From Candidatus Parcubacteria bacterium (lineage in GTDB: Bacteria; Patescibacteriota; Minisyncoccia; Minisyncoccales; JAGOPM01), in NCBI GenBank assembly GCA_017991975.1, contig JAGOPM010000002.1, positions 1-40,161 of the forward strand: DNA of 40,161 bases, read 5' to 3'. How positions within the stretch are numbered: position 1 is the first letter of the stretch; every line of letters starts with the position of its first letter. Both the position numbers and the translations under genes were made by a program. This document shows positions 6,009-35,510 of this stretch, piece after piece. The notes below the pieces were generated by a model. The model searched no databases, was not told the origin of the DNA, and saw only the letters and a list, made by a program, of their open reading frames with translations.

Positions 6009-6037
6009 TTGACAAATGACAAAAAGTGTGATATAAT
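6009..6037 (+). promoter_or_regulatory. sigma-70-type promoter (TTGACA-17-TGaTATAAT)
   Basis: ttgaca at 6009-6014, 17-nt spacer ending in tga, tataat at 6032-6037. About 80 nt upstream of the 6116 start, which has a GGAGGGAG RBS. Confidence 0.6.
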
Positions 6038-6115
6038 TATTATATAAGGCAATAAAAGCCTTTTGCTCCGGTAAGGCAAAAAGCCAAATCCGTAAAAATT
6101 TAATAAGGAGGGAGA

Positions 6116-8123: not shown

Positions 8124-10961
8124 ATGGAAGCAAAAAAACAAAGAACTTCCTTTGGCGAGCTTTTAAAAGCAATTTTTATTATTGCTTTTTTTATTGTTTT
8201 GCCGTTACAAACGCATGCATACTGCCACAAAGGAGCAACAATTTATCAAAGTTATAATGAAGCTGTAAAGCAAAGCGTATGGACTATGGGCATAGGCTCA
8301 AGCGACCCTAACTCGATTCAAGGATATAGATCGCTTCAAGATGCCATGGGATATATAGATGACATAGGAATACTTGGATATAAATACAATCAATGTTCTT
8401 CTTACACATCTCCATCATACCCTTCATATCCAAGCCAGCCATCATACCAAACGCCCAGCGTAAACACTATTTCAGCTAATCCGACTTATTCTGATGTGAC
8501 ACTGCAAGGATATGTCTCAAGCCTTGGAGGAGCATCAAGCGCCCAAGTATCTTTTGAAATTTGGCAAAAACAAACTGGTTCTTCTGCTGCTTCTCTTATC
8601 ACTGCCAACAAAACTGTTTATTCTCCTGGATATTTCACTATAACCACTAATTACCCTCAGACCGATGCTACGCTTTTCGGATATAGAGCAAGAATTCAAA
8701 CTAACGCTGGAACAGGATATGGATATGAACAAACTTTTACCAGACCAATTTATGTTCAACCAACCCCTCCGGTGTATCCGACATATCCTCAAAATCCAAC
8801 TATTACTTACCCTCAAGTAATAACCAGTAATGCATCTTATAACAGTTATTCCAATATCGCTGATTTTTCTGGATATCTTTCAAACCTTGGCAATGATAAC
8901 TCAGCCAAAACTGGATTCTGCTTATACGAAAAAAATTATGGATTCTATTGTCAGCAAGAATTAATTTCTGAATATAATAAATATTATGCAGGAAGTTTTA
9001 CTTATTCTAATTTTTCAACAGCATCTCTGAAATCAGGAACTCAATATTGCGTCAGAGCTTTCGCGCAAAATTCATATGCCAAGCAATTCGCTTCGGAATA
9101 TCAGGATAAATGTTTTACGACAAAATCATCTTATACTCCTCCAACCACAGTTTATACTTACCCAGAAACAAGAACAGAAAATATTTATTACAACAGTACT
9201 AATGATGAAATTTCTCTCTATGGATATCTGGCAAGCGCTGGAAATTATGGATACGCTAAAACCGGATTTTGCATTTATGAAAAAAATTATGGATTTTCAT
9301 GCGTCAGCGAATTAACGGCAAATGCCTTTCAATCTTCTTTAGGAAATTTTTCATATCTAAACTATTCTACACAAAATTTGAAAAGAAATACGCAATATTG
9401 CGTAAGAGCATATGGAGAAAATGAATATGGAAAAAAATATTCCTTAGCATATTATGATAAATGTTTTACAACTAGATATGATTATTATCAGCCTCCATAC
9501 AACCCAGGAACTCCATCAACATACCTCCCTCAAGTGAGAACAATGAATGCAATTTATTATCCTAATACTCTTATTGCTAATTTTTCGGGATATGTAGATT
9601 ATATAGGATCATACATGACAGCTAAGGTAGGATTCTGCCTTTATAGATATGAAAGCGGATTTTCCTGTGAACAAGAATTGATTTCTGAATATTCAAGAAG
9701 ATATAATGGATATTTTTATTACAATAATTTCCCAAGAAATGGATTATTATCTGATACTAAATATTGTGTAAGGGCATATGGAGAAAACTCGGCTGGAAGA
9801 TATTATGCTTCGGAATATCAGGATAAATGTTTTACAACAGACCAAGGATCAATACCAAGCCAGAATGAAGCAATCGAAATATCAAAAACAGCCACAGCTG
9901 GGACAGAATGCCAAACAGCAGATATTCAAATAAGAATAAATTGCAAAAGCTCTTATTGCCAAAATGTAGTCGTCTATGATGCATTAGCAGCAAATACAAA
10001 TTATATCAGCAATTCAGCAAGCCCTATTGTTTCCTATTATTGGCCTCATAAAGGACAAGCTTCCAGATTATTAGTCTGGAGTATCGGAAACATGAATAAT
10101 GGGACAAGAACAATTCAATATAAAATAAAATTTGCAGATGGATCGACCAACCAGCTAACAAATGATTATCCGGAATCAAAAGTAACTTATAATTTCTCAG
10201 GAGCACAAGCTACAAAAATTTTTGAAAAAGTTTTTGTAAATCCGATATCTTGCTCTGCTTCTAATCCGGATCCTGAGCAACAAGATCCTGGTCAGAATCC
10301 AGATCCACAACCTCAAAAAAAGAGCTGCCAAGATTATAAAAATATCTTCAAGGATAAATTCCAATATTGCGGAGAAAAAGGATATTATAGCGTTTGCGTC
10401 AATTCTGATCGAGATTTTTATACAGGCTGCAGCTTTTCAGAATTACAATGCACAAGACTAAATTCTAAAAATATAAGCTGCCAAATTCCTGATGATTACA
10501 GACAATATAAAATACAAACCATAGGATTATATTACCAAACACTGTCATCATTCTTAGCAAGAGGATATCTTTTCTCTGGATATGGAAAAGCAGATGTTGG
10601 TTTCATAACCTATGAACAAGGTAAACAAGATCAAGCAAAAGAAATCCAAGCAAACCAAGCGCAAGCAAACGGATATTTTCAAAAAACAATAGCTGCTAAC
10701 GACTTAGGAGATCCGGGAAAAACATATTGCATAAAAGCTTTCTATATGAAAGGAAGCCAAAAAGTTTTAGCCCAAGAAGAAAAATGCTATACACTGGGAG
10801 GCTGTTATAAAGGAATCATAATATATTCAAGGCAAGGCGTTTCAAGCATGCCCTTCTGGGCGAGACTCCCCGAATATTACCAAAAACAAAATTATTCTGA
10901 ATTACAAAGTTTAATAGATGAAAAAATAAATTCCGGAAAAACTTTCAGTCAATGCCAATAA
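8124..10961 (+). CDS. large secreted/anchored repeat protein (Cys-containing Fn3-like modules, DUF11-like domain, P/Q linker, Cys-rich domain)
   Basis: 945 aa with an N-terminal hydrophobic anchor. Three tandem modules of about 102 aa end in YCVRA(Y/F)..N......KCFTT (nt 8817-9122, 9168-9473, 9534-9839). More diverged copies lie near the N- and C-termini. A PDPEQQDPGQNPDPQPQ linker is present. Confidence 0.7.
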   Translation: MEAKKQRTSFGELLKAIFIIAFFIVLPLQTHAYCHKGATIYQSYNEAVKQSVWTMGIGSSDPNSIQGYRSLQDAMGYIDDIGILGYKYNQCSSYTSPSYPSYPSQPSYQTPSVNTISANPTYSDVTLQGYVSSLGGASSAQVSFEIWQKQTGSSAASLITANKTVYSPGYFTITTNYPQTDATLFGYRARIQTNAGTGYGYEQTFTRPIYVQPTPPVYPTYPQNPTITYPQVITSNASYNSYSNIADFSGYLSNLGNDNSAKTGFCLYEKNYGFYCQQELISEYNKYYAGSFTYSNFSTASLKSGTQYCVRAFAQNSYAKQFASEYQDKCFTTKSSYTPPTTVYTYPETRTENIYYNSTNDEISLYGYLASAGNYGYAKTGFCIYEKNYGFSCVSELTANAFQSSLGNFSYLNYSTQNLKRNTQYCVRAYGENEYGKKYSLAYYDKCFTTRYDYYQPPYNPGTPSTYLPQVRTMNAIYYPNTLIANFSGYVDYIGSYMTAKVGFCLYRYESGFSCEQELISEYSRRYNGYFYYNNFPRNGLLSDTKYCVRAYGENSAGRYYASEYQDKCFTTDQGSIPSQNEAIEISKTATAGTECQTADIQIRINCKSSYCQNVVVYDALAANTNYISNSASPIVSYYWPHKGQASRLLVWSIGNMNNGTRTIQYKIKFADGSTNQLTNDYPESKVTYNFSGAQATKIFEKVFVNPISCSASNPDPEQQDPGQNPDPQPQKKSCQDYKNIFKDKFQYCGEKGYYSVCVNSDRDFYTGCSFSELQCTRLNSKNISCQIPDDYRQYKIQTIGLYYQTLSSFLARGYLFSGYGKADVGFITYEQGKQDQAKEIQANQAQANGYFQKTIAANDLGDPGKTYCIKAFYMKGSQKVLAQEEKCYTLGGCYKGIIIYSRQGVSSMPFWARLPEYYQKQNYSELQSLIDEKINSGKTFSQCQ
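8817..9839 (+). repeat. three tandem intragenic repeats of about 306 nt encoding the Cys-containing modules
   Basis: Protein-level repeats GFC.Y...GF.C..EL....Y....F.Y.N......L...T.YCVRA.......Y...Y.DKCFTT. A 29-nt identical stretch gcttcggaatatcaggataaatgttttac occurs at 9090-9118 and 9807-9835. Confidence 0.85.
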
Positions 10962-15237: not shown

Positions 15238-16149
15238 ATGAAAAAAATATCGAAAAACCTTGCTGAGCTGATTAAAAAAAGCCCTGCTGTCAAAAAGCAG
15301 TTTTTTTGCGGTTTAAACCCTGTATGCAATGATTCAAATGATCCATTGCAAGAAGACAGCAAATATCTCAAAACAAAAGGATTAATTCATAAATATCCTA
15401 AAAGAGCCTTAATAATGCTTTCAAAAAAATGCGGAGCTTACTGCTCTTTCTGCTCGCGCAAACGATTCCAAAATGAAATAGAAAATTATTCTACTTCAAG
15501 AGAAGATATATCTAAAATGGCAGAATATATAAGAACTGCTCCCGATATGAATGAAATAATACTCTCTGGCGGCGATCCATTGCTTTCGGACAATCTTGAT
15601 TATGCCATAAAAACGTTTTCAAAAATTCCGCAAATAAAAATAATCAGAATACATACCAGAGCAATACTCTCAGCTCCAGATGCCTTTAATGAAAATTTTT
15701 TTGAATCATTAAAAAAATCACAAAAAACAATCTACATTTCCTTCCATATAAATCATCCTGACGAATTGACTCCGATAGCAAAAAAAATAATAAATGAATG
15801 CAGAGAAAATCATATAATCGTTCTTGCGCAAACTGTTTTTTTGAAAGGAATAAATGATTCTGCGCAAATCTTAGAAAAGCTCTTTTGCAGCTTATCGGAG
15901 CTTGGAGCTATTCCTTATTACATACACAGATGCGATAAAGTCAAAGGATTAGAAAATTTTATAGTCCCAATAGAAAAAGAAATAGAGATTATGACAAAAT
16001 TGCAAGCTAAACTCTCGGGTATAGCTCTGCCTAAACATGTAATAGACACTCCTTTCGGATACGGCAAGATTCCAGTACCGCAAAATTTTTGGGAATTCGA
16101 TAAAAAAGAATTCAAGGACTATAAGGGGAAAAAATATCAAATGTATTAA
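15238..16149 (+). CDS. epmB: KamA-family radical SAM lysine 2,3-aminomutase (EF-P beta-lysylation EpmB-like)
   Basis: 303 aa. CGAYCSFCSRKR is a CxxxCxxC radical-SAM cluster. The SGGDPL and HIN..HP.E pattern is typical of the KamA/YjeK family. epmA and efp are present in the same window. Confidence 0.75.
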   Translation: MKKISKNLAELIKKSPAVKKQFFCGLNPVCNDSNDPLQEDSKYLKTKGLIHKYPKRALIMLSKKCGAYCSFCSRKRFQNEIENYSTSREDISKMAEYIRTAPDMNEIILSGGDPLLSDNLDYAIKTFSKIPQIKIIRIHTRAILSAPDAFNENFFESLKKSQKTIYISFHINHPDELTPIAKKIINECRENHIIVLAQTVFLKGINDSAQILEKLFCSLSELGAIPYYIHRCDKVKGLENFIVPIEKEIEIMTKLQAKLSGIALPKHVIDTPFGYGKIPVPQNFWEFDKKEFKDYKGKKYQMY

Positions 16150-19964: not shown

Positions 19965-19992
19965 ATCATAGCCGATTCTTTATTTTTGTCAA
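19964..19992 (-). promoter_or_regulatory. promoter of the Rrf2-nifS-nifU-mnmA string (TTGACA-17-TATGAT)
   Basis: On the minus strand, TTGACA at 19992-19987, a 17-nt spacer, and TATGAT at 19969-19964. Confidence 0.55.
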
Positions 19993-19994
19993 AC

Positions 19995-20044
19995 AAAAAA
20001 AGCAGGAGAGAATTCTCTCCTGCTTTAGGATTTAGTGTTTATTA
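19995..20044 (-). terminator. intrinsic terminator block T-A, copy 1 of a 50-nt exact repeat (copy 2 at 24971-25020)
   Basis: Stem GCAGGAGAG-aatt-CTCTCCTGC (20002-20023), followed by T7 on the minus strand. The 50 nt are identical to 24971-25020 in my hand alignment. Confidence 0.8.
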
Positions 20045-20069
20045 ATATCTATAATAAACCCTATTGCTA

Positions 20070-20282
20070 TTACTTTTTGTCGTCTGCAGTAACGGTAAGT
20101 TCTCTGGGTAACATCTTTATTCTATCAAAAACAAAAGGTTCTTCAATTTCCCGGGGCAACATATGGGGCAACATATCTATCATCTCTATCATCCTCCTTA
20201 ATTTATTGGGTAACATCTTTATTCTATCAAAAACAAAAGGTTCTTCAATTTCCCGGGGCAACATATCTATCATCTCTATCAT
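20070..20282 (-). CDS. putative 70-aa micro-ORF built from a tandem duplication (coding status uncertain)
   Basis: AAGGAGG (20289-20283) followed by ATG at 20282 and ATG at 20273. Peptide MIEMIDMLPREIEEPFVFDRIKMLPNKLRRMIEMIDMLPHMLPREIEEPFVFDRIKMLPRELTVTADDKK. The track ORF start at 20354 lies in the conserved leader and is unlikely. Confidence 0.3.
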   Translation of the reverse strand: MIEMIDMLPREIEEPFVFDRIKMLPNKLRRMIEMIDMLPHMLPREIEEPFVFDRIKMLPRELTVTADDKK

Positions 20283-20296
20283 CCTCCTTAATTTAT
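20106..20296. repeat. tandem direct repeat, 101-nt unit + 89-nt unit, with an internal 12-nt micro-duplication
   Basis: gggtaacatctttattctatcaaaaacaaaaggttcttcaatttcccggggcaacatat...ctatcatctctatcatcctccttaatttat occurs at 20106-20206 and 20208-20296. The first unit carries an extra ggggcaacatat (20153-20164 repeated at 20165-20176). Each unit contains an AAGGAGG-ATG on the minus strand. Confidence 0.95.
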
Positions 20297-20374
20297 AACG
20301 TACTGCTATCTGTTTTGCCTTGTCCCAGCCGCTGATTGTGGGGTATTTGAACAAGTTTTGACAGATATTGTTAT
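20283..20374 (-). promoter_or_regulatory. conserved 5' leader of about 92 nt (leader A, copy 1), candidate cis-regulatory RNA
   Basis: Part of the 131-nt block 20279-20409, which matches 25908-26038 with 7 substitutions and no indels. Helices UAUCUGU/ACAGAUA (20367-20361 with 20313-20307) and CUUGU/ACAAG can be drawn. Confidence 0.45.
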
Positions 20375-20380
20375 ATATTA

Positions 20381-20409
20381 ATTATATCATACTATCTCTA
20401 TTTTGTCAA
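20381..20409 (-). promoter_or_regulatory. consensus promoter Pr-A (TTGACA-17-TGaTATAAT)
   Basis: On the minus strand, TTGACA at 20409-20404, a 17-nt spacer ending in TGA, and TATAAT at 20386-20381. Confidence 0.7.
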
Positions 20410-20436
20410 TACTACCCTTTTTCAAAATATATATAA

Positions 20437-20468
20437 TAAAAGCCCCTTTCTTTTGAAAGGGGCTTTTT
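20437..20468 (-). terminator. intrinsic terminator T-B (near-identical to T-C at 21888-21918)
   Basis: AGCCCCTTTC-tttt-GAAAGGGGCT, followed on the minus strand by TTTTATT. Confidence 0.8.
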
Positions 20469-20473
20469 GATGT

Positions 20474-20992
20474 TTATTTCCAAGAACTCTCTTTTAAGGA
20501 CGAATAGTTAGAAGATACTCCCAACTCGGTATGAAAAGTGTTAACAGAATCCATCCTTGCTGTATTGAATTGGACTTCACCATAATCAATAAAGACAATT
20601 TTGTCTTGCTTGGAGAATATCCTTGCCAACACTTCCAGTTCCTTTGTTTCTGAGATTATCTCCTCAGAGATAAAAGGAGTATGAAGCGTTGCAAAAAAAT
20701 TCTTCTTCTGACTGTTCTTCTTGGGAATAGTATAAATTATTTCCTGCCATTCCCGACCAGCTGTTTTAGATAGAATAGTTACTTGTTTAGATGAATAATA
20801 TGGTTCCAAAACAATTTTATATTCTATCTTTGCATCATTTTCTATCTTTTGAGTGAAAGGATTATAGTAAGATACCTTCAAAGCCATTACTATCAGCTCC
20901 ATTATACGCCAGCTCTCAGAGATTTCTGAAGGCAGTTCATTTAATGGAACTAATTCTTTATAATCTCCTTGGGCGTAAATGGAAACTGGCAT
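20474..20992 (-). CDS. hypothetical protein (ORFan, second gene of a 2-gene unit)
   Basis: 172 aa. RBS AAAGGAGAAAAAATG. 33 nt downstream of the 21026 stop. No family recognised. Confidence 0.55.
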   Translation of the reverse strand: MPVSIYAQGDYKELVPLNELPSEISESWRIMELIVMALKVSYYNPFTQKIENDAKIEYKIVLEPYYSSKQVTILSKTAGREWQEIIYTIPKKNSQKKNFFATLHTPFISEEIISETKELEVLARIFSKQDKIVFIDYGEVQFNTARMDSVNTFHTELGVSSNYSSLKESSWK

Positions 20993-21025
20993 TTTTTCTC
21001 CTTTCAGATCAGATTTCTCAGTTGA

Positions 21026-21682
21026 TCAATTTATGCCTTCTTCAAAAAGCCATTTTTTTCTCAATTCCTTGGCTCTTTTCAAGAAATTATTTATGTCTTG
21101 AACAGTGGGAATTGTTTCTGGAATTTCTTCTCTGTCTTTATTTCTAAGGCCGACCATTGCCACCGCCACTCCAGATTTCGTATCATTGAAGACTCTTACA
21201 ACAGAAACGATGAACGTGCCATTTTTGGTAACGTATACCGATTCGTTTGTTCCAGAGGAAATTTGACCATGATCATTTTCTCCAACTATGAAATTTTCCC
21301 CTACTTCTTCTTCTGTTTCTTCTTCACATTTCTTTATCATTTCTTCTGTTTTTTCTGTGGCTGTTACGAAGAAGAATTTCCCGAATTTTGGATCTTTTTT
21401 CAAAGATTGGAATTCTTCATCAGGGACTAATTCCACGGTAAGGTTTATCTCATCGTCTGGTCCGTTTATTTCATTTTTTGTAGTCACTGCATGAAAAATT
21501 TTGCCGTTCTTATCAACATATTCAAAATTTTCATATGCAAAACTCGCTTCTCCAAAAATCAATGCTCCGCGATAACCAGAATGGATTGGATTCCCGTTTT
21601 CATCTTTTCTCACTGAAATTCCTTTTTCTAAAAGTTCTTTTTCATCAAATTTTTCATTGATAATGAGCGCGGCCTTTGCCAT
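21026..21682 (-). CDS. hypothetical acidic protein (ORFan)
   Basis: 218 aa. RBS GAAAAGGAGAAAAAATG. Has its own promoter and a structured leader. No family recognised. Confidence 0.55.
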   Translation of the reverse strand: MAKAALIINEKFDEKELLEKGISVRKDENGNPIHSGYRGALIFGEASFAYENFEYVDKNGKIFHAVTTKNEINGPDDEINLTVELVPDEEFQSLKKDPKFGKFFFVTATEKTEEMIKKCEEETEEEVGENFIVGENDHGQISSGTNESVYVTKNGTFIVSVVRVFNDTKSGVAVAMVGLRNKDREEIPETIPTVQDINNFLKRAKELRKKWLFEEGIN

Positions 21683-21788
21683 TTTTTCTCCTTTTCTTCC
21701 ATGGTTCCTTTATTTTTAATAAAGGTAGGAAGCAATGCTAACTTTTTTCCCGCCAGGTTAGCCTGGACATAGGCATAGCATTATTTTA

Positions 21789-21817
21789 TATATATCATAC
21801 TATTTAATATTTGTCAA
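21789..21817 (-). promoter_or_regulatory. promoter Pr-B (TTGACA-17-TGaTATATA)
   Basis: On the minus strand, TTGACA at 21817-21812, a 17-nt spacer ending in TGA, and TATATA at 21794-21789. It shares ATAGTATGATATA with Pr-A and Pr-D. Confidence 0.65.
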
Positions 21818-21887
21818 TAGCACCTAATCTAAAATCAAAAAGGGATATATTAGTATCAAAATCATGATTTTTATTAAAAATAAACAA

Positions 21888-21918
21888 TAAAAGCCCCTTT
21901 CCTTTGAAAGGGGCTTTT
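21888..21918 (-). terminator. intrinsic terminator T-C
   Basis: AAGCCCCTTTC-cttt-GAAAGGGGCTT. Near-identical to T-B, including the upstream ataaaa context. Confidence 0.8.
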
Positions 21919-21931
21919 GCCAATGCCCTAA

Positions 21932-22546
21932 TTATGGGCAAATATAATATTGGAAGCTGATTACAAGATCTTCCATCCTCTTTTTTTCCCTAATCTTTTT
22001 CACTATCTCTGCTTTCTTTTCCTTTTCCATATCCAGATAATTGGAGTTTCCTGTCTTGATACGCATTTCCTGATAGTGTCTGCTTTCTTCTTCTAATTTC
22101 TCGATGTCTGAATTCAAGTGGCTGATTCTTTTGTTTAAAAAAGAAAAATGATCATCAGCAGTATCAAACATCATCTCGGCAATATTATCTATTATTCTAG
22201 AGCAATCATCTCTACTGCCATGGAACGATATCGGCTCATATCCGCATGCTTCCGATGAATTATCAAATTCAATGGTTGCTGAATCAAAGGATATTTTTGA
22301 GATGATTAGAACAATCTTCCCCTTCTTTCCTACGATAGGGATATTGTCTCCTTCCTTGCCTAAAAGCCATTGAATCTCTCTTTTAAAATCCGCCCCGGTG
22401 ATAACAGCTCTATTTTTCGAACTCCGAGCTTTAACTTCTATGACACTGCGATTCATTTCTTTTTCCAAAGGATTCCTATCAACGATTTCAAGGGAAAAAA
22501 CATTGTTCCCGATACGGACTTTCTTTTCTGTATTCTTTTCTGACAT
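21932..22546 (-). CDS. hypothetical protein with C-terminal coiled-coil-like region (ORFan)
   Basis: The track start is TTG at 22552. ATG at 22546 sits 8 nt after AAGGAAG. The region LNSDIEKLEEESRHYQEMRIK...EKEKKAEIVKKIREKKRMEDL is heptad-like. Confidence 0.55.
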   Translation of the reverse strand: MSEKNTEKKVRIGNNVFSLEIVDRNPLEKEMNRSVIEVKARSSKNRAVITGADFKREIQWLLGKEGDNIPIVGKKGKIVLIISKISFDSATIEFDNSSEACGYEPISFHGSRDDCSRIIDNIAEMMFDTADDHFSFLNKRISHLNSDIEKLEEESRHYQEMRIKTGNSNYLDMEKEKKAEIVKKIREKKRMEDLVISFQYYICP

Positions 22547-22629
22547 TATCAACTTCCTTTCTTTTCCCTGTTTTCATTTTTGGGTTTTTAGTTTCAAACC
22601 TAAAACAGGATCTTTTATGTGCTATATTA

Positions 22630-22658
22630 ATTATAGCATACTTATCTAAAAATGTCAA
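22630..22658 (-). promoter_or_regulatory. consensus promoter Pr-C (TTGACA-17-TGcTATAAT)
   Basis: On the minus strand, TTGACA at 22658-22653, a 17-nt spacer ending in TGC, and TATAAT at 22635-22630. AGTATGnTATAATTAATATA is shared with Pr-A and Pr-D. Confidence 0.7.
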
Positions 22659-22664
22659 TAGCTA

Positions 22665-22693
22665 TTGCCTACCAATAACTTTTAGCCTATATT
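22665..22693 (+). promoter_or_regulatory. candidate divergent promoter (TTGCCT-17-TATATT)
   Basis: ttgcct at 22665-22670, a 17-nt spacer, tatatt at 22688-22693. The RBS TAAGGAGG precedes the 22726 ATG. Confidence 0.45.
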
Positions 22694-22725
22694 AAAGCAA
22701 ACAAAAAACCTATAAGGAGGTTTAA

Positions 22726-23835
22726 ATGGAGATCATTAAAAAAAAGAGCAATAGACTGGAAACTATTTTAAAGCATACAAAATCTGGAGACCAAATTATC
22801 ATTGCTAATTTCAAGGAATATCGAGATGAAAATAGGCAAAAAATACAATGGTGGAAATTGGTGAAAAATGGAGCTTTTATTGTTGATGATCAAGGAGAGC
22901 TTTTTTACAACGATAATAAAATAGACTTCCCTAAAATCACTTATGAAGATAATATTTATGCTTTTGATAAATATTTTGTCTGTATCAGTAATCAAGACGG
23001 GATATCATTTATCAATATTCCCCAATCATCTAATAGCATTCAAAAACATATATCAATAACAAAAGATTATGATGATAATCCTATAATCGCAAAAACAGGA
23101 ATATATTTTAAAAAAGACGCTGATCTATATTTCTATTCTTTCAAGAAAAAAAGAAAAGAAATTATTTGGCAAGGGAAAACAAGAATTTGCAATATGTCTG
23201 TCTGCGATCAAGGAATAATTATTCCAGAAAAAGATGATATTATTCTAATCGAGAATTCTCGCAAAATTCTCATCCTATGGAATAAGCCTCATTCTTGCAT
23301 AGAAGAAAAATATTATACGACCAACATAACACCCAGTTACAATGATGAAAAATTATTTTTATTTGATAAAGATGGAAAAGGCATAATTCATAGCCAAAAT
23401 AGGATTGTTCAAGAAACTTCTTTTACGACAAAAAGTAATTTCTCTTTTTCTATGACACCAATAGGATTGCTTTACAATAATACAGATGATATTGAATCAA
23501 ATATCGAAATATTAACCTTAACTGGCAAAAAAATAAATCTTGGTTCTTACGAAAACCCTCATACAACAATATCAGAAAAAGGAGTCATTATATCAACTTT
23601 AAATAACTCTGGAAAAAAGCTCGGATCCCTGCATATTAATAGTCATAGAGCAGATGAATTTTTTATTCCTTTCAAAAAAATCAGAGAAGATAATTTTACT
23701 TTTTACAGAGATCGCATCAAAATTTACCTTCGTGCCGAAAACGCTTGGTTTAAATATGATCAAGATTATGATAATGAAATTGGTTATGCTCGACTAAACG
23801 AAGAAAAAAACGAAATAAGATTCTTCGTAAAATAA
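22726..23835 (+). CDS. hypothetical cytoplasmic protein (ORFan, beta-rich)
   Basis: 369 aa with a strong RBS and its own terminator. No family recognised. Confidence 0.55.
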   Translation: MEIIKKKSNRLETILKHTKSGDQIIIANFKEYRDENRQKIQWWKLVKNGAFIVDDQGELFYNDNKIDFPKITYEDNIYAFDKYFVCISNQDGISFINIPQSSNSIQKHISITKDYDDNPIIAKTGIYFKKDADLYFYSFKKKRKEIIWQGKTRICNMSVCDQGIIIPEKDDIILIENSRKILILWNKPHSCIEEKYYTTNITPSYNDEKLFLFDKDGKGIIHSQNRIVQETSFTTKSNFSFSMTPIGLLYNNTDDIESNIEILTLTGKKINLGSYENPHTTISEKGVIISTLNNSGKKLGSLHINSHRADEFFIPFKKIREDNFTFYRDRIKIYLRAENAWFKYDQDYDNEIGYARLNEEKNEIRFFVK

Positions 23836-23842
23836 TGCAATA

Positions 23843-23876
23843 AAAAAACCGCTTGAATTATAAAGCGGTTTTTTTG
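23843..23876 (+). terminator. intrinsic terminator
   Basis: ACCGCTT-gaattata-AAGCGGT followed by TTTTTTT. Confidence 0.7.
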
Positions 23877-23934
23877 TATGTAATTAATCCAGTTTACATA
23901 TTAAATTAAAATGTTATGATTTTGATATAACATT

Positions 23935-24972
23935 ATGAAAAACTGGCAAAAAATACGCAACAATCCAGCCTTAAAAGAACGCGAGATTAAACGCTCGCTA
24001 ATATTCCGCTATATTCGGGAATTTTTTGATAAGCAAGGTTTTTATGAGATCCAATGCCCTTTGCTTTTAGCCTGCCCGGGCATGGAACCCTATTTGGAAC
24101 AAATCGGCTTAGATCTTTATGATGAAAAGCGCAACAAATACCGTGGCTATCTTTCCACTTCTCCGGAATACTCAATGAAAAAAATGCTCTCTGCCGGCTT
24201 TGAAAAAATTTATAATATGGCCTCGGCCTTTCGAGGTGGAGAAAGTTTTGGCGGCACACATAATATTGAATTTACAATTTTGGAATGGTATCGCGCCAAT
24301 ACTGACTATACTGCCATTATGGAAGATGTGGAAGATTTGGCAATTTATTTGGCCCAGAAATTGCATGGAAAAACTTTAATAAAATATCAGGGGCAAGAAA
24401 TTGAATTAGCCAAACCTTGGCAAAGAATGACAGTCAGAGAAGCCTGCCAGAAATACGCCAATTTTGATTTAAGCGAAAATAAAGAATTAGAACAAATTAA
24501 AAAAACCGCGCTAGACAAGGGTTACAAAGTGGCAGACAATGCCACCTGGGACGATTTATTTTATCTGATATTCCTCAATGAGGTGGAACCAAATTTCCCC
24601 AAAGATAAACCTTTAATTTTGTGCGAATACCCCCTACCCCAAGCTGCTTTGTCAAAACCTTGCCAGCATGATCCTTGGTATGCTGAAAGATTTGAATATT
24701 ATATCGGAGGAATTGAAATTGGAAATTGCTTTTCGGAATTAGTTGACGGAGATGAACAATTAAAAAGATTGCAAGAAGAGCAAAAACTCCGCGGAATTTT
24801 GGGTAAAGAAATCTTGCCCATTGATATGGAATTTATTAAAGCTCTTAAAATGGGCGTGCCTGACTCTTCGGGCATTGCTGTGGGCGTGGACCGTTTGCAA
24901 ATGCTTTTGCTTGATGTCAAAGACATCAACGACTTATTGCCATTTCCAGACAAAGATTTGTTTAATTTATAA
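23935..24972 (+). CDS. epmA: EF-P lysine lysyltransferase (PoxA/GenX, class II LysRS paralog lacking the anticodon-binding domain)
   Basis: 345 aa. Class II aaRS motifs: FYEIQCPLL, the YLSTSPEYSMKKML-type motif 1/2 region, EWYRAN, and the GVPDSSGIAVGVDRLQMLL motif 3. Length and domain content fit EpmA rather than LysS. Confidence 0.8.
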   Translation: MKNWQKIRNNPALKEREIKRSLIFRYIREFFDKQGFYEIQCPLLLACPGMEPYLEQIGLDLYDEKRNKYRGYLSTSPEYSMKKMLSAGFEKIYNMASAFRGGESFGGTHNIEFTILEWYRANTDYTAIMEDVEDLAIYLAQKLHGKTLIKYQGQEIELAKPWQRMTVREACQKYANFDLSENKELEQIKKTALDKGYKVADNATWDDLFYLIFLNEVEPNFPKDKPLILCEYPLPQAALSKPCQHDPWYAERFEYYIGGIEIGNCFSELVDGDEQLKRLQEEQKLRGILGKEILPIDMEFIKALKMGVPDSSGIAVGVDRLQMLLLDVKDINDLLPFPDKDLFNL

Positions 24973-25020
24973 AAAAAGCAGGAGAGAATTCTCTCCTGCT
25001 TTAGGATTTAGTGTTTATTA
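24971..25020. terminator. intrinsic terminator block T-A', copy 2 of the 50-nt exact repeat; shared by convergent epmA and the GC-rich gene
   Basis: Identical to 19995-20044. Its last 3 nt (tta, 25018-25020) are the TAA stop of the GC-rich gene. Confidence 0.8.
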
Positions 25021-25911
25021 CAAAAGATCTGAAGAAAGGAAGGCCGAAGCGGAGCCGTAGTGCTCGTAGACGCTGCCGAACCAGTAGGCGTCGAAACAGA
25101 CCCTGTCGACGGCGAAGCAGCCGAAGAGCGGCGCGCTCGAGAAGCTGCCAAAGCCGCCCGGAGCGAACTCGTCACCCGCGCAGTCGACGTGCAACTGTTC
25201 CCACCGAACTTCGCGTTCCGGGTGGGTCAGCAGCATGATGCCGACAGCGAAGGCACCGAGACCGAACTCGTTGGCCTGGAAGACCTCGCGTGCCCGGCGA
25301 ACCGAGCGACCGCGATACCTGAGACCGAACTGGGCCGGAACGACGAGGATGTCGTGATCCTTCTGCTCGTCGCCGAGCTTCTGGAACATCTTCGCCGTCT
25401 TCGCGTGCTGGCGCAGGTACTCCGCTCCGAGCCGGCCGTCACGGTAGTCGTAGAACTCCCGCTTCGACGCGATCATCGCGAGCACCTTCTGGAGCGCCTC
25501 GCCGTAGGTCGGGGCGATCTTCTCCCACCTCGGAATGGCGAACCATCCTTCGGCGCCGTCGGGCAACTGCGGCAGGTTCTTGGCGTACTCGAGCGCGCTC
25601 GCCGGGTCGAGATCGAAGATCTTGGTGATTACCTTGATCTGATCCGCGATCGGCTTGGGGCCCTTGTACTCCTTCGGATACGCGTAGCTCGACTCGACTT
25701 CCTCGTGGGCGAACTGGTTGTACAGCGAGAGCTCCTTGATGCCGATGATGATGCGAGCTTGAAACTTGTCACCGTTCTCGATGAGCTTCTGGATGCCGTC
25801 CTTGTCGAGGAGACCCTCGGCGATTGCGCGATCCACGGCGTCTTCCGCGAACCGCTTGACCTGCTTCTTCTGTCCGTCTGTGACGGTGGTGATCAATGTT
25901 TCCATTGTCAT
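25018..25911 (-). CDS. GC-rich hypothetical protein (297 aa; 295 aa if the second ATG at 25905 is used), compositionally foreign
   Basis: AAGGAGG at 25918-25912, then ATGACAATG. Strong G/C third-position bias along the minus frame. Consensus promoter and terminator. The opposite-strand ORF 25060..25920 lacks any start context. No family recognised by me. Confidence 0.7.
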   Translation of the reverse strand: MTMETLITTVTDGQKKQVKRFAEDAVDRAIAEGLLDKDGIQKLIENGDKFQARIIIGIKELSLYNQFAHEEVESSYAYPKEYKGPKPIADQIKVITKIFDLDPASALEYAKNLPQLPDGAEGWFAIPRWEKIAPTYGEALQKVLAMIASKREFYDYRDGRLGAEYLRQHAKTAKMFQKLGDEQKDHDILVVPAQFGLRYRGRSVRRAREVFQANEFGLGAFAVGIMLLTHPEREVRWEQLHVDCAGDEFAPGGFGSFSSAPLFGCFAVDRVCFDAYWFGSVYEHYGSASAFLSSDLL

Positions 25912-26003
25912 CCTCCTTGATTTATAACGTGCTGCTATCTATTTTGTCTTGTCCCAGCCGCTGATTGCGGGGTATTTGAACAAGTTTTGACAGATATTGT
26001 TAT
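25912..26003 (-). promoter_or_regulatory. conserved 5' leader (leader A, copy 2)
   Basis: Part of the 131-nt block 25908-26038, matching 20279-20409 with 7 substitutions. Confidence 0.45.
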
Positions 26004-26009
26004 ATATTA

Positions 26010-26038
26010 ATTATATCATACTATCCTTATTTTGTCAA
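26010..26038 (-). promoter_or_regulatory. consensus promoter Pr-D (TTGACA-17-TGaTATAAT), paralog of Pr-A
   Basis: On the minus strand, TTGACA at 26038-26033, a 17-nt spacer ending in TGA, and TATAAT at 26015-26010. Confidence 0.7.
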
Positions 26039-26095: not shown

Positions 26096-26653
26096 ATGAT
26101 AACAACAGCAGATTTCACCAAAGGAACAATTATAAAAATCGAAGGCAATTATTGGGAAATAACTGAATGCCAATTTGTTAATCCTGGAAAAGGATCGGCA
26201 TTTACAAGGACAAGGTTAAAAAACCTTAAAGACGGCCGCACAATGGAACAAACTTATAAATCAGGAGAAGAATTCCAAGATGTAGAGTATGACAAAAGAG
26301 ATGCCGTATTTTTATACAAAGACAGGAAAAATGCCGTTTTTTCAGTAGGAGAAAAAAAAGAAAGAATCAGTCTGCCTTTAGAAACTCTATCGGACAAAAT
26401 GCCCTACCTAAAAGAAAACACTGAATTAGAAATGATGTTTGCCGAAGGTCAATGTTTAACAATAATGCTTCCTAAAAAAGTCAATCTCAAAGTTGTTATG
26501 GCTCCGCCATCAATGAAAGGAAATACTGCCGGATCAGCTACGAAAACAGTAACAGTAGAAACTGGTTTAGAAATAGTAGTTCCAGATTTTATAAATGAAG
26601 GGGACATAATCAGAATAAACACTGAATTAGGTAAATATAGCGAAAGAGTTTAA
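26096..26653 (+). CDS. efp: translation elongation factor P
   Basis: 185 aa. The FVNPGKGSAFTRTRLKNLKDGRT loop carries the modifiable Lys in PGKG. Three-domain length. Confidence 0.92.
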   Translation: MITTADFTKGTIIKIEGNYWEITECQFVNPGKGSAFTRTRLKNLKDGRTMEQTYKSGEEFQDVEYDKRDAVFLYKDRKNAVFSVGEKKERISLPLETLSDKMPYLKENTELEMMFAEGQCLTIMLPKKVNLKVVMAPPSMKGNTAGSATKTVTVETGLEIVVPDFINEGDIIRINTELGKYSERV

Positions 26654-32269: not shown

Positions 32270-32300
32270 CCTCGCTCGTAAGCCGAGCTACGGCTGAGAG
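32270..32300. repeat. GC-rich palindromic hairpin element, degenerate copy (in the T-arm of the tRNA-like copy)
   Basis: cctcgctcgtaagccgagctacggctgagag. Same termini and core (cctcgc.cgt ... gctacggc.gag.g) as the two copies at 32348-32414. Confidence 0.75.
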
Positions 32301-32347
32301 ATTCGAACCTAGATAATCGCCTCCAGAGGGCGATGTCCTACCATTAG

Positions 32348-32414
32348 CCTCGCCCGTGGCCGGGCTACGGCCGAGGGCCTCGCCCGTAGGAAGTAGCCTA
32401 GCTACGGCCGAGGG
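32348..32414. repeat. two tandem GC-rich palindromic hairpin elements (30 nt + 37 nt) in the D-arm of the tRNA-like copy
   Basis: cctcgcccgtggccgggctacggccgaggg (32348-32377) and cctcgcccgtaggaagtagcctagctacggccgaggg (32378-32414). Each folds as CCTCG(C)CCGT...ACGGCGAGG-type stems of 9-12 bp with one mismatch or bulge. Confidence 0.85.
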
Positions 32415-32433
32415 ACGATCCTTCTGCGCAAAG

Positions 32434-32504
32434 TTGCGGGACTAGGATTCGAACCTAGATAATCGCCTCCAGAGGGCGATGTCCTACCATTAGACGATCC
32501 CGCA
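32434..32504 (-). tRNA. tRNA-Gln (anticodon CUG), no encoded CCA
   Basis: Hand fold. Acceptor TGCGGGA/TCCCGCA with U1-A72 (a bacterial tRNA-Gln hallmark). Anticodon stem ATCGCC/GGCGAT with loop CTCTGGA. T arm CTAGG-TTCGAAT-CCTAG. Discriminator A. Confidence 0.85.
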
Positions 32505-34402: not shown

Positions 34403-35510
34403 TTAAATGTCTTTTAATTTTATTTCTGCTTCAATGAAATCTTCTATTTCACCATCTAAAACACCTTCTGTGTCCGATGTTTGATAATCTGTCCTTAAAT
34501 CTTTAACCATTCTATATGGTTGCAGAACATAAGATCTAATTTGATTACCCCATTCAATTTTTACCTTTTTTCCTTGCAAATCACTTATTTCTTTTAAATG
34601 CTCTTGCTCTTTTAATTGATATAATTTTGAATAAAGCATTTTCATCGCTTTTTCTTTATTCAATAATTGCGTTCTCTCAGTTTGGCAAGTTACAGCAATT
34701 CCTGTCGGTATATGCACAATTCTTATTGCAGTTTCTCTTTTATTAACATTTTGTCCTCCTGCCCCGCCTGATCTTGATGTTTCGATTCTTAAATCATTAT
34801 CGCTAATATTTATATTTTCATCTGAATTATTTATTTCAGGCATCACTTCAATCATTGCAAAAGATGTATGCCTTAATGCTTGAGCTGAAAAAGGCGATAT
34901 TCTAACTAATCTATGGACGCCATGCTCTTTCCTCAAAAAACCATAAGCATAATTTCCATTAATTTCTAATGTTGCTTGTTTTACTCCAACATTTCCTAAA
35001 GGACTTGGTTCTCCGTAGCTGATATCAATTATCTTATAATCAAAACCTTTTTTTTCTGCATATCTACTATACATTCTCAAAAGCATTGACGCCCAATCTT
35101 GAGCTTCATCTCCGCCAGCTCCGGCAGAAATTGTTAAAATGGCATTTCTTTGATCGTATTTTCCTGATAAAAAAGTTTTGAATTCTTCTTTGCCAATCTG
35201 CTCTTCTATGACTTTAATTTTTAAAGCTAAATCTTGTTGCAAAGATTCATCACCCTCTCCTAATTCTGATAATTCTTTTAAATCTTTTATTTCGCTTTTA
35301 AACCTTTCCAAATTATCCCTTTCTTGTTTCAGTCCTGCTAATTCTTTTTGCAATCTCCCTGCTTCTCCGGGATTATCCCAAAATTCTGGTTTTTGGCTTT
35401 GGTTTTCTAAATCTACGATTCTTTTCCCTTTATTTTCAACGTCAAAGACAGTCGGCTAAATGTTTTAGCCGTTCCTCTAAAGAGTTAATTTTAACGTCGA
35501 AATTGTCCAT
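34403..35510 (-). CDS. prfB: peptide chain release factor 2, with programmed +1 ribosomal frameshift
   Basis: Frame 0: ATG 35510 ... CTT (35447-35445), then TGA (35444-35442). Shifting +1 (GAC from 35443) reads [38 protein letters not shown]... into the 34403..35353 ORF. The SPF motif (RISPFSAQ) and GGQ (GGAGGQNVN) are present. Confidence 0.9.

Follow-up and report, generated by a model that had tools for sequence, protein, structure and literature searches.

How can one and the same expression shell come to enclose two quite different inserts? The question is raised by a stretch of 40,161 nucleotides (nt) from a Candidatus Parcubacteria bacterium (contig JAGOPM010000002.1, positions 1 to 40,161; hereafter the window). 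Here a block with promoter, leader and ribosome-binding site (RBS), together with a block containing a terminator, is found at two loci 5.6 kb apart in direct orientation, within a strain-variable island; locus 1 lies just upstream of the Rrf2/suf operon. An initial annotation had proposed that two unrelated cargos replace each other inside a conserved transcription unit, by a mechanism not yet described. Our answer, to which we give a probability of roughly 0.62, is that the shell is the native unit of a gene encoding the variable protein of a diversity-generating retroelement (DGR), that two paralogous cassettes of this unit exist, and that one of them lost its gene to filler DNA by general recombination.

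The existence of the two shells was borne out by a repeat search over the whole window. The 5´ blocks extend over 131 nt, ungapped and with 95% identity, differing by seven substitutions (block positions 12, 13, 71, 92, 98, 108 and 120), and the 3´ blocks are identical over all 50 nt. Both pairs are direct repeats in conserved order, just as initially described, and all shell signals are on the minus strand. Chance could not plausibly account, within 40 kb, for repeats so long and so similar. The four blocks are the following.

20279..20409, minus strand: shell 5´ block, copy 1; -35 at 20404-20409, -10 at 20381-20386, leader, Shine-Dalgarno (SD) sequence at 20283-20289
19995..20044, minus strand: shell 3´ block, copy 1; hairpin 19999-20026, T-run abutting the -35 of the Rrf2 promoter (19987-19992)
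25908..26038, minus strand: shell 5´ block, copy 2; -35 at 26033-26038, TG-extended -10 at 26010-26015, SD AAGGAGG at 25912-25918
24971..25020, minus strand: shell 3´ block, copy 2; TAA at 25018-25020, spacer, hairpin 24975-25002 (GCAGGAGAG-AATT-CTCTCCTGC), T-run

All predicted signals were found at both copies. The extended promoters TTGACA-17-TATAAT (26038-26010 and 20409-20381) match the consensus at 12/12 positions and have a TG upstream of the -10, and AAGGAGG (25918-25912 and 20289-20283) follows about 90 nt 3´ of each. Each terminator hairpin (25002-24975 and 20026-19999) has a 12-pair stem closed by a 4-nt loop and is followed by a T-run; its folding energy is -19.7 kcal/mol (z = -6.5). 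Transcription of copy 2 probably starts near 26003, which would give a leader of about 85-92 nt; its 3´ block also terminates the convergent epmA gene (stop 24970-24972). Homology between the shells is limited by AAGGAGGATGA at the 5´ side and by the TAA stop of the copy-2 gene at the 3´ side, in agreement with the boundaries first noticed. As a riboswitch or other structured RNA the leader was rejected: it has no Rfam match, either at the gathering threshold or at E<=1, its fold z-scores (-1.3, -0.15 and -1.3) are not significant, and changes in the predicted stem are one-sided only.

Might the shells resemble each other merely as consensus promoters and generic terminators of an AT-rich genome do? 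The promoters are indeed perfect sigma-70 consensus sequences, but the identity also spans the 17-nt spacer and some 90 nt of leader devoid of significant structure (z = -1.3, -0.15). Moreover, an nhmmer profile of the promoter module, reaching from the -35 to just past the -10 with the spacer included, scores E below 1e-7 at only four places in the window, all within 20.3-26.1 kb; the next match (6009-6047, E = 0.002) is weak. We therefore consider convergence highly improbable.

The two inserts differ as initially stated: copy 1 holds 234 AT-rich nt with duplications and copy 2 an 894-nt open reading frame (ORF) at 61% GC. What does the latter encode?

25018..25911, minus strand: cargo 2, DGR variable (target) protein gene; 894-nt ORF, 297 amino acids (aa)
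25025..25162, minus strand: variable region (VR) of cargo 2; its 3´ end is the conserved YGSASAF / TACGGxTCCGCTTCGGCCTTCC

The likely start of cargo 2 is the ATG at 25905 (295 aa), which gives the family start METLIT 6 nt past the SD. Its family has no entry in Pfam, NCBIfam, PHROG or PADLOC, and yet it is large: 2651 homologues were found, most of about 289 aa. The best 120 of these 2651 are 50-94% identical to cargo 2, mostly above 60%. Among the matches listed, those with a named source all come from Patescibacteria/Parcubacteria, one Limisphaerales excepted; the best homologues are nearly all annotated as "hypothetical", and many homologue contigs are only about 1 kb long. An alignment of the homologues shows a strongly conserved body followed by about 40 C-terminal residues in which fixed and free positions alternate, with the pattern FSxAPxFxFxxGxVxFxAxWxxxAxxxYGSASAF.

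The nature of this pattern becomes apparent at one homologue locus (L001), where the gene adjoins genes for an RVT_1 reverse transcriptase (RT) and bAvd. An inverted 131-nt copy of its 3´ end sits between these genes. All 17 of the 17 mismatches between the two copies fall on adenines of this copy, which has 30 adenines in its 131 nt, and this relation is diagnostic of the template repeat (TR) and variable region of a DGR. An RT gene adjoins the cargo 2 homologue on three IMG/VR contigs as well (L028, L029 and L030). When the VR of the window is compared with the heterologous TR of L001, it differs at 20/30 adenine sites and at 9/101 other sites (Fisher p = 6.6e-10); for two more strains of the same species the counts are 16/30 and 2/101. 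Among strains, cargo 2 is about 88% identical while its flanks are 98.4-98.8% identical, and two stretches hold the differences, a discrete mosaic block at nt 231-350 and the 144 nt at the 3´ end. Between L009 and L011, for example, 19 of 36 differences lie within the final 144 of 888 nt. VR peptides vary from strain to strain and the locus stays constant. Judged from its sequence, cargo 2 is a DGR variable protein that is undergoing diversification in this population.

Neither an RT nor Avd nor a TR was found in the 40-kb window (tblastn and blastn; RT also by Pfam). Since none of them lies within these 40 kb, the cognate RT and TR are placed in trans, outside the window. Remote DGR targets are known, and targets lacking recognisable domains are a known trait of the candidate phyla radiation (CPR) clade (Roux et al. 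2021, PMC8144416). The fold of cargo 2 could not be assigned: two AlphaFold2 models reached a mean predicted local distance difference test score of 47 and 65, with the C-terminal 100 residues below 50, Foldseek against PDB and a PDB profile search gave no structural match, and all four attempts were uninformative.

The sequence TACGGxTCCGCTTCGGCCTTCC is kept in all VRs and in the TR of L001, and a perfect 12-bp hairpin follows 3´ of the stop. This conserved hairpin is certainly terminator-like and probably acts as the terminator. It may possibly double as the site of DGR target recognition, since it is nearly perfectly conserved in two species and always stands behind a DGR target or its remnant. 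The idea of a target-recognition hairpin stems from work on a Bordetella phage. As a separate observation, a LOOT RNA (Rfam RF03000, 77 bits) is located about 170 nt downstream of the DGR target in L001 (7038-7163) and L003 (7051-7175), two Patescibacteria loci that are otherwise unlike each other, and is absent from the window.

Base composition sets the gene apart from everything around it. Cargo 2 has 61% GC in a window of 33.6%, GC jumping from 0.33 to 0.65 at the gene, and its GC at third codon positions (GC3) is 0.84 as against 0.23-0.38 in the neighbouring genes. In every genome examined (the window, L001, L002, L003, L028 and L030) the excess is limited to the coding sequence; the compared GC-rich intervals are 25018-25911 in the window and 6001-6873 in L001. 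Across the family GC3 is 0.84-0.86, against 0.23-0.48 in host genes and 0.60-0.67 in the adjacent RT and Avd genes, and paralogues are intermediate in GC (0.56 in L020, 0.55 in L030, 0.50 in L016). We infer that this sharp edge is best explained by replacement from a wide allele pool: repeated homologous replacement from alleles shared across Patescibacteria would be bounded by the conserved coding sequence and the RBS.

The same jump from 0.33 to 0.65, together with the many homologue contigs of about 1 kb, might suggest that a foreign GC-rich gene has been spliced in by the assembler, or that the second shell is a mis-join. Against this, the order epmA-cargo-efp recurs in at least seven independent assemblies (JGI, ENA, NCBI, Logan), the GC step at the borders of the coding sequence recurs in unrelated genomes, and the short contigs break off within the repeated blocks, as true repeats would cause them to do. 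At locus 2, between epmA and efp, the gene is present in 7/7 strain contigs that reach it, four of which read through the whole gene and three of which end within it. An assembly artefact, a possibility raised for the copy at 25 kb, can practically be dismissed.

We now turn to the other shell. The insert of copy 1 (about 35% GC) contains two exact duplications, one of 60 nt (20105-20164 = 20207-20266) and one of 42 nt (20165-20206 = 20255-20296), which were left unscored by TRF because they comprise fewer than two copies. The slot was surveyed in eight contigs of the same species, found through their identical Rrf2 protein. Its flanks are fixed, with the gene for a 172-aa protein (g172) on one side and the Rrf2 promoter on the other, and the shell is the same across strains. 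The insert is not.

Window, 20070..20273, minus strand: cargo 1, an orphan micro-ORF of 67 aa (MIDMLPREIEEPFVFDRIKMLP...), 37 aa in strains without the duplication
Window, 20105..20296, no strand assigned: recent in-frame tandem duplication with units of 102 and 90 nt and a second SD (20193-20199), plus a 12-nt duplication
L021, L023 and L026, locus 1: insert of 144 nt with the 37-aa micro-ORF, equal to the window insert minus the tandem duplication, which these three contigs lack
L020 and L025, locus 1: full-length cargo 2 paralogue of 299 aa, 71% DNA identity, GC 56%, C-terminus ...GSASAFLPPDLL
L022 and L024, locus 1: unrelated insert of 434 nt without a long ORF, with a diverged duplicate of leader, RBS and start

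Thus at least three unrelated inserts occupy the copy-1 slot among strains at one and the same locus, and the cargo does vary at fixed flanks, which the initial annotation had suggested as a test. In L020 and L025 the paralogue has a 5´ block of 94-95% identity on one side and the terminator block on the other, and L027 holds the 3´ end only of this 299-aa paralogue. One metagenome-assembled genome (GCA_029560795.1) carries DGR-target genes at both loci (L020 and L041). The insert of L022 and L024 retains the last codons of the DGR gene (TTTGTAAC.AACAGTAATCC). Single-nucleotide polymorphisms in the 131-nt block are mosaic between the loci, CAAGCAGAAACGG for instance being common to L007 (locus 2) and L022 (locus 1), and this mosaicism indicates gene conversion between the shells.

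The picture of two equal, unrelated cargos does not hold. The recurrent occupant is the DGR gene, found at locus 2 in every strain sampled, in some strains at locus 1, and in the sibling species; cargo 1 is an orphan filler, and fillers of three different kinds occur. The idea that the micro-ORF encodes a conserved small protein was rejected: its only credible matches in 1.84 billion representative proteins are two from the same species (P0241 and P0242), the rest being long repeat proteins with 24-25% identity that we judged to be noise. Also rejected was the idea that the copy-1 insert is a remnant of the DGR gene, as Smith-Waterman scores, for whole genes and for gene ends, were no better than those of shuffled sequences (p = 0.23-0.99). 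By eye only, RELTVTADDKK resembles ETLITTVTDGQKK, and ATTGAAGAAC is common to the copy-1 insert and L016.

Which occupant came first? In a sibling species (L016; EpmA 91% identical in amino acids and 81% in nucleotides), a 229-aa paralogue of cargo 2 (42% aa identity, GC 50%) is located on the opposite side of epmA. It is preceded by GCAGCACATTAAAATAAAGGAGGATGACGATG, a match to the 3´ end of the shell leader, and followed by the terminator block (44 nt, 97.7%). In a more distant relative (L017) epmA directly abuts efp, with nothing between. The string of SD plus start, AAGGAGGATGAC(A/G)ATG, is a feature of the target family and occurs also in the distant genomes L001 and L003. On the basis of the distribution of the gene in the outgroup and among strains, the shell is by parsimony the DGR target's own unit, and the copy-1 insert of the window is, by the same reasoning, a derived state, a species-restricted orphan filler.

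The events may of course have run in the opposite direction: the shell would first have expressed the micro-ORF protein, and GC-rich DGR targets would have been captured horizontally into its copies. The micro-ORF has a good SD at good spacing, its frame was kept through two duplications, and the filler of L022 shares its start (M[VI]D[TM]LP[KR]E); cargo 2 is foreign-looking, with its GC3 of 0.84. However, the micro-ORF is without matches beyond this species, in the sibling species it is a DGR-target paralogue, not a micro-ORF, that stands between the leader end and the terminator block, the SD-plus-start string belongs to the target family, and L022 keeps 3´ codons of the DGR gene. We regard this direction as unlikely.

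Further copies of the shell were sought in public data. The exact 20-nt leader pattern occurs in metagenomes in contigs of this species only, at the two slots, although the pattern misses the CAATTAGC variant of L020 and L022 and hence variants within the same species. Three matches in GTDB genomes, all alphaproteobacterial, and two in metagenome contigs lie in GC-rich (58-61%) DNA without any other similarity and were taken as chance. A search for additional copies had been suggested at the outset; with this exact leader pattern it returned no other species beyond those chance matches. The terminator and promoter patterns are absent from IMG/VR, where four distant relatives of cargo 2 occur; plasmid records contain no match to the shell, and GenBank phage records none to the cargo protein.

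These results bear on whether the shells are a pair of the kind formed by miniature inverted-repeat transposable elements, copy 2 being an autonomous element that ends in the shell blocks and copy 1 its internally deleted derivative. The ends are alike, the interiors differ and the short copy lacks the gene, as such a pair would have it. But the ends are not inverted repeats of each other, the flanks show no target-site duplication, and the only inverted arms in the repeat search are inside the terminator hairpin. Cargo 2 is a DGR target rather than a transposase, and the exact 20-nt leader pattern was met in this one species alone, at the two slots, with no copies found at new sites. Such an origin is very improbable.

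The regulatory modules are not restricted to the two shells. Besides the shell promoters, the remaining strong promoter sites of the window and a second type of terminator module are these.

21774..21824, minus strand: paralogous promoter module upstream of the g218-g172 operon; nhmmer E = 5.6e-8, repeat family
22618..22662, minus strand: paralogous promoter module upstream of the 206-aa gene; nhmmer E = 1.2e-8, 12/12 promoter
20418..20467, minus strand: second terminator module (GGGGC type, AAAAGCCCCTTTC...GAAAGGGGCTTTT), directly upstream of the copy-1 promoter; paralogue at 21869-21918

This second terminator module, a spacer and the promoter module together form a unit of about 95 nt, present in the window at 20368-20466 and 21782-21918 and also in L016, L020 and L022; the promoter module itself has two sites in L016, upstream of unrelated membrane-protein genes. 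The initial annotation had named, among the findings that would refute it, flanks that prove to be a generic intergenic repeat. In part this applies, as promoter and terminator modules do recur beside other genes in the island and in L016.

A different leader, about 115 nt long and ending in CTTAGGAGGTAG, stands behind the terminator-spacer-promoter unit in L020 and L022. This second leader precedes a peptidase M29 gene in L020 and an unrelated peptidase M3 gene in L022, with one mismatch over the common part. A second leader plus RBS is therefore shared by two unrelated genes in two strains, which is a further case of cargo differing inside a shell. In L022 the terminator-spacer-promoter unit is duplicated and flanks the peptidase M3 cassette on both sides; the window is without this cassette altogether. 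The second shell lies at 1234-1384 in L020 and at 1118-1268 in L022, with an identical promoter module, and its leader contains a possible upstream ORF of 14 codons (MKHLILPNRQVKTT) that ends at the SD.

Junctions at functional boundaries in two different shells are what one would expect of a dedicated cassette exchange. Promoter, SD and terminator modules would then be sites for an enzyme acting in trans, and circles would be excised and reinserted in the manner of integrons, with no local integrase. The duplicated module around the peptidase M3 cassette resembles attL and attR, and the modules are 86-98% conserved in the sibling species while its epmA DNA is only 81% identical. A contig that is circular by the SPAdes criterion (L034, ERZ761562 NODE_14666; 5,617 bp with an exact terminal overlap of 55 nt) corresponds to a recombination product of two shell copies. 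It joins window positions 22667->20279 to 26038->22613, and its hybrid shell is of the copy-1 type at block positions 12-13 and of the copy-2 type from position 71, with the crossover in a stretch of 57 identical nt. This circle is, however, equally explained by a loop in the assembly graph, because the identity of 57 nt exceeds k = 55 and its coverage (6.3x against 7.3x for the chromosomal contig) is about chromosomal. For these reasons we did not accept L034 as proof of excision.

Other evidence also speaks against an exchange system. As initially noted, no integrase or transposase is nearby: Pfam search of 45 ORFs in the 40 kb detected no integrase, recombinase, transposase or reverse transcriptase domain. 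The modules are plain direct repeats with no inverted-repeat or attC-like architecture. The exact 20-nt leader, a pattern that misses leader variants, is found only in contigs of this species; IMG/VR contains none of the modules, and plasmid records do not contain the shell. A dedicated exchange system is in our opinion improbable. Equally doubtful is the more general notion that the regulatory modules (promoter to +1, leader to SD, and terminator) are portable recombination sites between which coding sequences are swapped precisely, possibly via circles like L034. If true, such module swapping would be an integrase-free functional analogue of the integron, and it would explain why the target family is GC-rich exactly from RBS to stop in every host.

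General recombination on the DGR cassettes, the reading we prefer, can be set out as follows. The cassette would have been duplicated at the DNA level; a copy made through mRNA or cDNA is argued against by the inclusion of the promoter. In some lineages the coding sequence of locus 1 would later have been lost, with filler in its place, by illegitimate or homology-facilitated recombination, one junction being anchored in a repeated promoter/leader or terminator module (36-131 nt) and the other placed at a short homology such as the SD. Replication slippage may then have produced the in-frame duplications that include the RBS, and the cognate RT and TR, located outside the window, would act in trans. 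For RecA-type and homology-facilitated illegitimate recombination, direct repeats of 36-131 nt together with microhomology at the SD suffice. Cargo does differ within a fixed shell and between strains, as initially claimed, but no undescribed mechanism is required for it.

Several points weigh against this reading. Random illegitimate recombination predicts less tidy junctions than those seen in two independent shells, which coincide with the transcription start, the SD and the stop codon; the reading must invoke selection for expression. The direction, a gene lost rather than gained, follows from parsimony with one outgroup. The RT and TR of this species were not found in the 40-kb window and the short contigs, and the lectin-like fold expected of a DGR target was not confirmed by the structural models. 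Lastly, the fillers have no detectable similarity to the DGR gene (shuffle tests with p = 0.2-0.99, the first and last 60 nt included), so that a simple internal deletion is not demonstrated, and a source of the filler DNA was not found among 34 loci and the window, apart from the partial leader duplication inside L022.

How does the locus compare with known systems? It is a variant of two known kinds, remote or paralogous DGR targets and gene families with a shared upstream block. DGRs with multiple or remote targets include a Patescibacteria/CPR clade in which the targets lack recognisable domains (Roux et al. 2021, PMC8144416); work by Paul and colleagues from 2017 is reported to deal with such DGRs as well. 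Like known DGRs, the family has a C-terminal VR with adenine-specific differences from the TR, and RT and Avd stand beside homologues elsewhere; like known CPR targets, the protein has neither a Pfam domain nor a signal peptide, and paralogous targets have a common VR 3´ end. Unlike in known DGRs, no RT or TR is within 40 kb, the transcription units that hold the two targets are complete and duplicated, some strains have one slot emptied, and in every host examined the strong GC richness is restricted to the coding sequence.

The other kind is exemplified by the "upstream homology box" family of Borrelia (erp/ospE/ospF/elp; Marconi et al. 1996 via PMC10016077), in which, as far as that account goes, a conserved promoter/RBS block precedes divergent coding sequences and recombination among the copies generates variants. 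The same arrangement was found here: shell 1 stands before the micro-ORF and the L022 filler as well as before cargo 2 and its L020 paralogue, and the second leader precedes the M29 and M3 peptidase genes. In the account cited, cp32 prophage plasmids carry the Borrelia copies, whose products are all lipoproteins with related leaders, whereas here the copies are in a chromosomal island, the terminator block is common as well, and one insert is apparently non-genic. This assignment denotes a descriptive class and not a mechanism.

With integron cassettes the locus shares interchangeable, strain-variable cargos at a fixed expression site. In contrast to them, it has no IntI, attI or attC, each unit comes with its own 12/12 promoter and terminator, the direct repeats are the regulatory elements themselves, and the 3´ block is a simple hairpin with a T-run. 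Phage morons, too, are autonomous promoter-gene-terminator units, such as the one here between the unrelated genes epmA and efp, which abut in L017; but no prophage genes are nearby, the cargo has no PHROG or GenBank phage match, and IMG/VR, with its four distant cargo relatives, contains neither shell module.

As to mechanism, the closest parallel is homology-facilitated illegitimate recombination, which de Vries and Wackernagel and also Prudhomme and colleagues, both in 2002, are said to have described in transformable bacteria. In this process a homologous anchor holds one junction, and a microhomology of 3-12 nt the other. The anchors in promoter or terminator modules and the junctions at AAGGAGGATGA or CTTAGGAGGTAG conform to this pattern. 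We know of no demonstration of this process in Patescibacteria.

The surroundings of the shells include housekeeping genes. The closest relatives of the window are Patescibacteria/Parcubacteria, and Pfam assignments for its 45 ORFs include suf/iscS, mnmA, tgt, epmA, efp, lepA, murJ, ftsEX and a release factor; RNase P and three tRNAs are encoded as well. Between the shells (20474-23835) lie four genes of 172, 218, 206 and 369 aa. None of them belongs to a family above threshold in Pfam, NCBIfam, PHROGs or PADLOC, with sub-threshold matches for the 206-aa gene only, and none has a tblastn match in L016, where other hypothetical genes surround epmA. The neighbourhood of epmA as a whole is a variable island. 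Relative to epmA, efp (26096-26653) is on the opposite strand compared with its counterpart in L017 (9027-9587), where the pair is convergent and abutting; given this difference in orientation, insertion of the cassette appears to have been accompanied by inversion of efp. A radical-SAM gene resembling lysine-2,3-aminomutase (15238-16149, plus strand), probably epmB, is 8 kb away from epmA and efp and does not adjoin them.

Three further features were noticed elsewhere in the window. An ORF with an RF-1 release-factor domain (34403-35086, minus strand) matches the PCRF profile from position 121 onwards, which places the N-terminal part in another frame; the break is probably the programmed +1 frameshift of prfB. 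A 57-nt segment (32300-32356) is a 93% copy of part (32446-32502) of tRNA-Gln (32433-32504), 146 nt away; it resembles the fragments left by integrative elements, and both copies match L017. Finally, three diverged repeats, at intervals of about 351-366 nt, lie inside a 945-aa ORF without Pfam match (8124-10961, plus strand).

What does the locus tell us about DGRs in these organisms? Remote DGR targets in bacteria of the candidate phyla can occupy duplicated, self-contained units that are gained, emptied and made mosaic between close strains. As duplicated cassettes turn over between strains, the number of target genes is variable at the strain level, and short-read assemblies systematically break at such duplicated target units. 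The GC excess confined to the coding sequence of a very widespread, unannotated family lends itself readily to testing at scale. The island itself offers a compact natural case of regulatory modules serving as homology arms for gene turnover in tiny genomes with few mobile-element genes. Even if the ordinary reading alone holds, about 2,600 "hypothetical proteins" could be labelled as DGR variable proteins.

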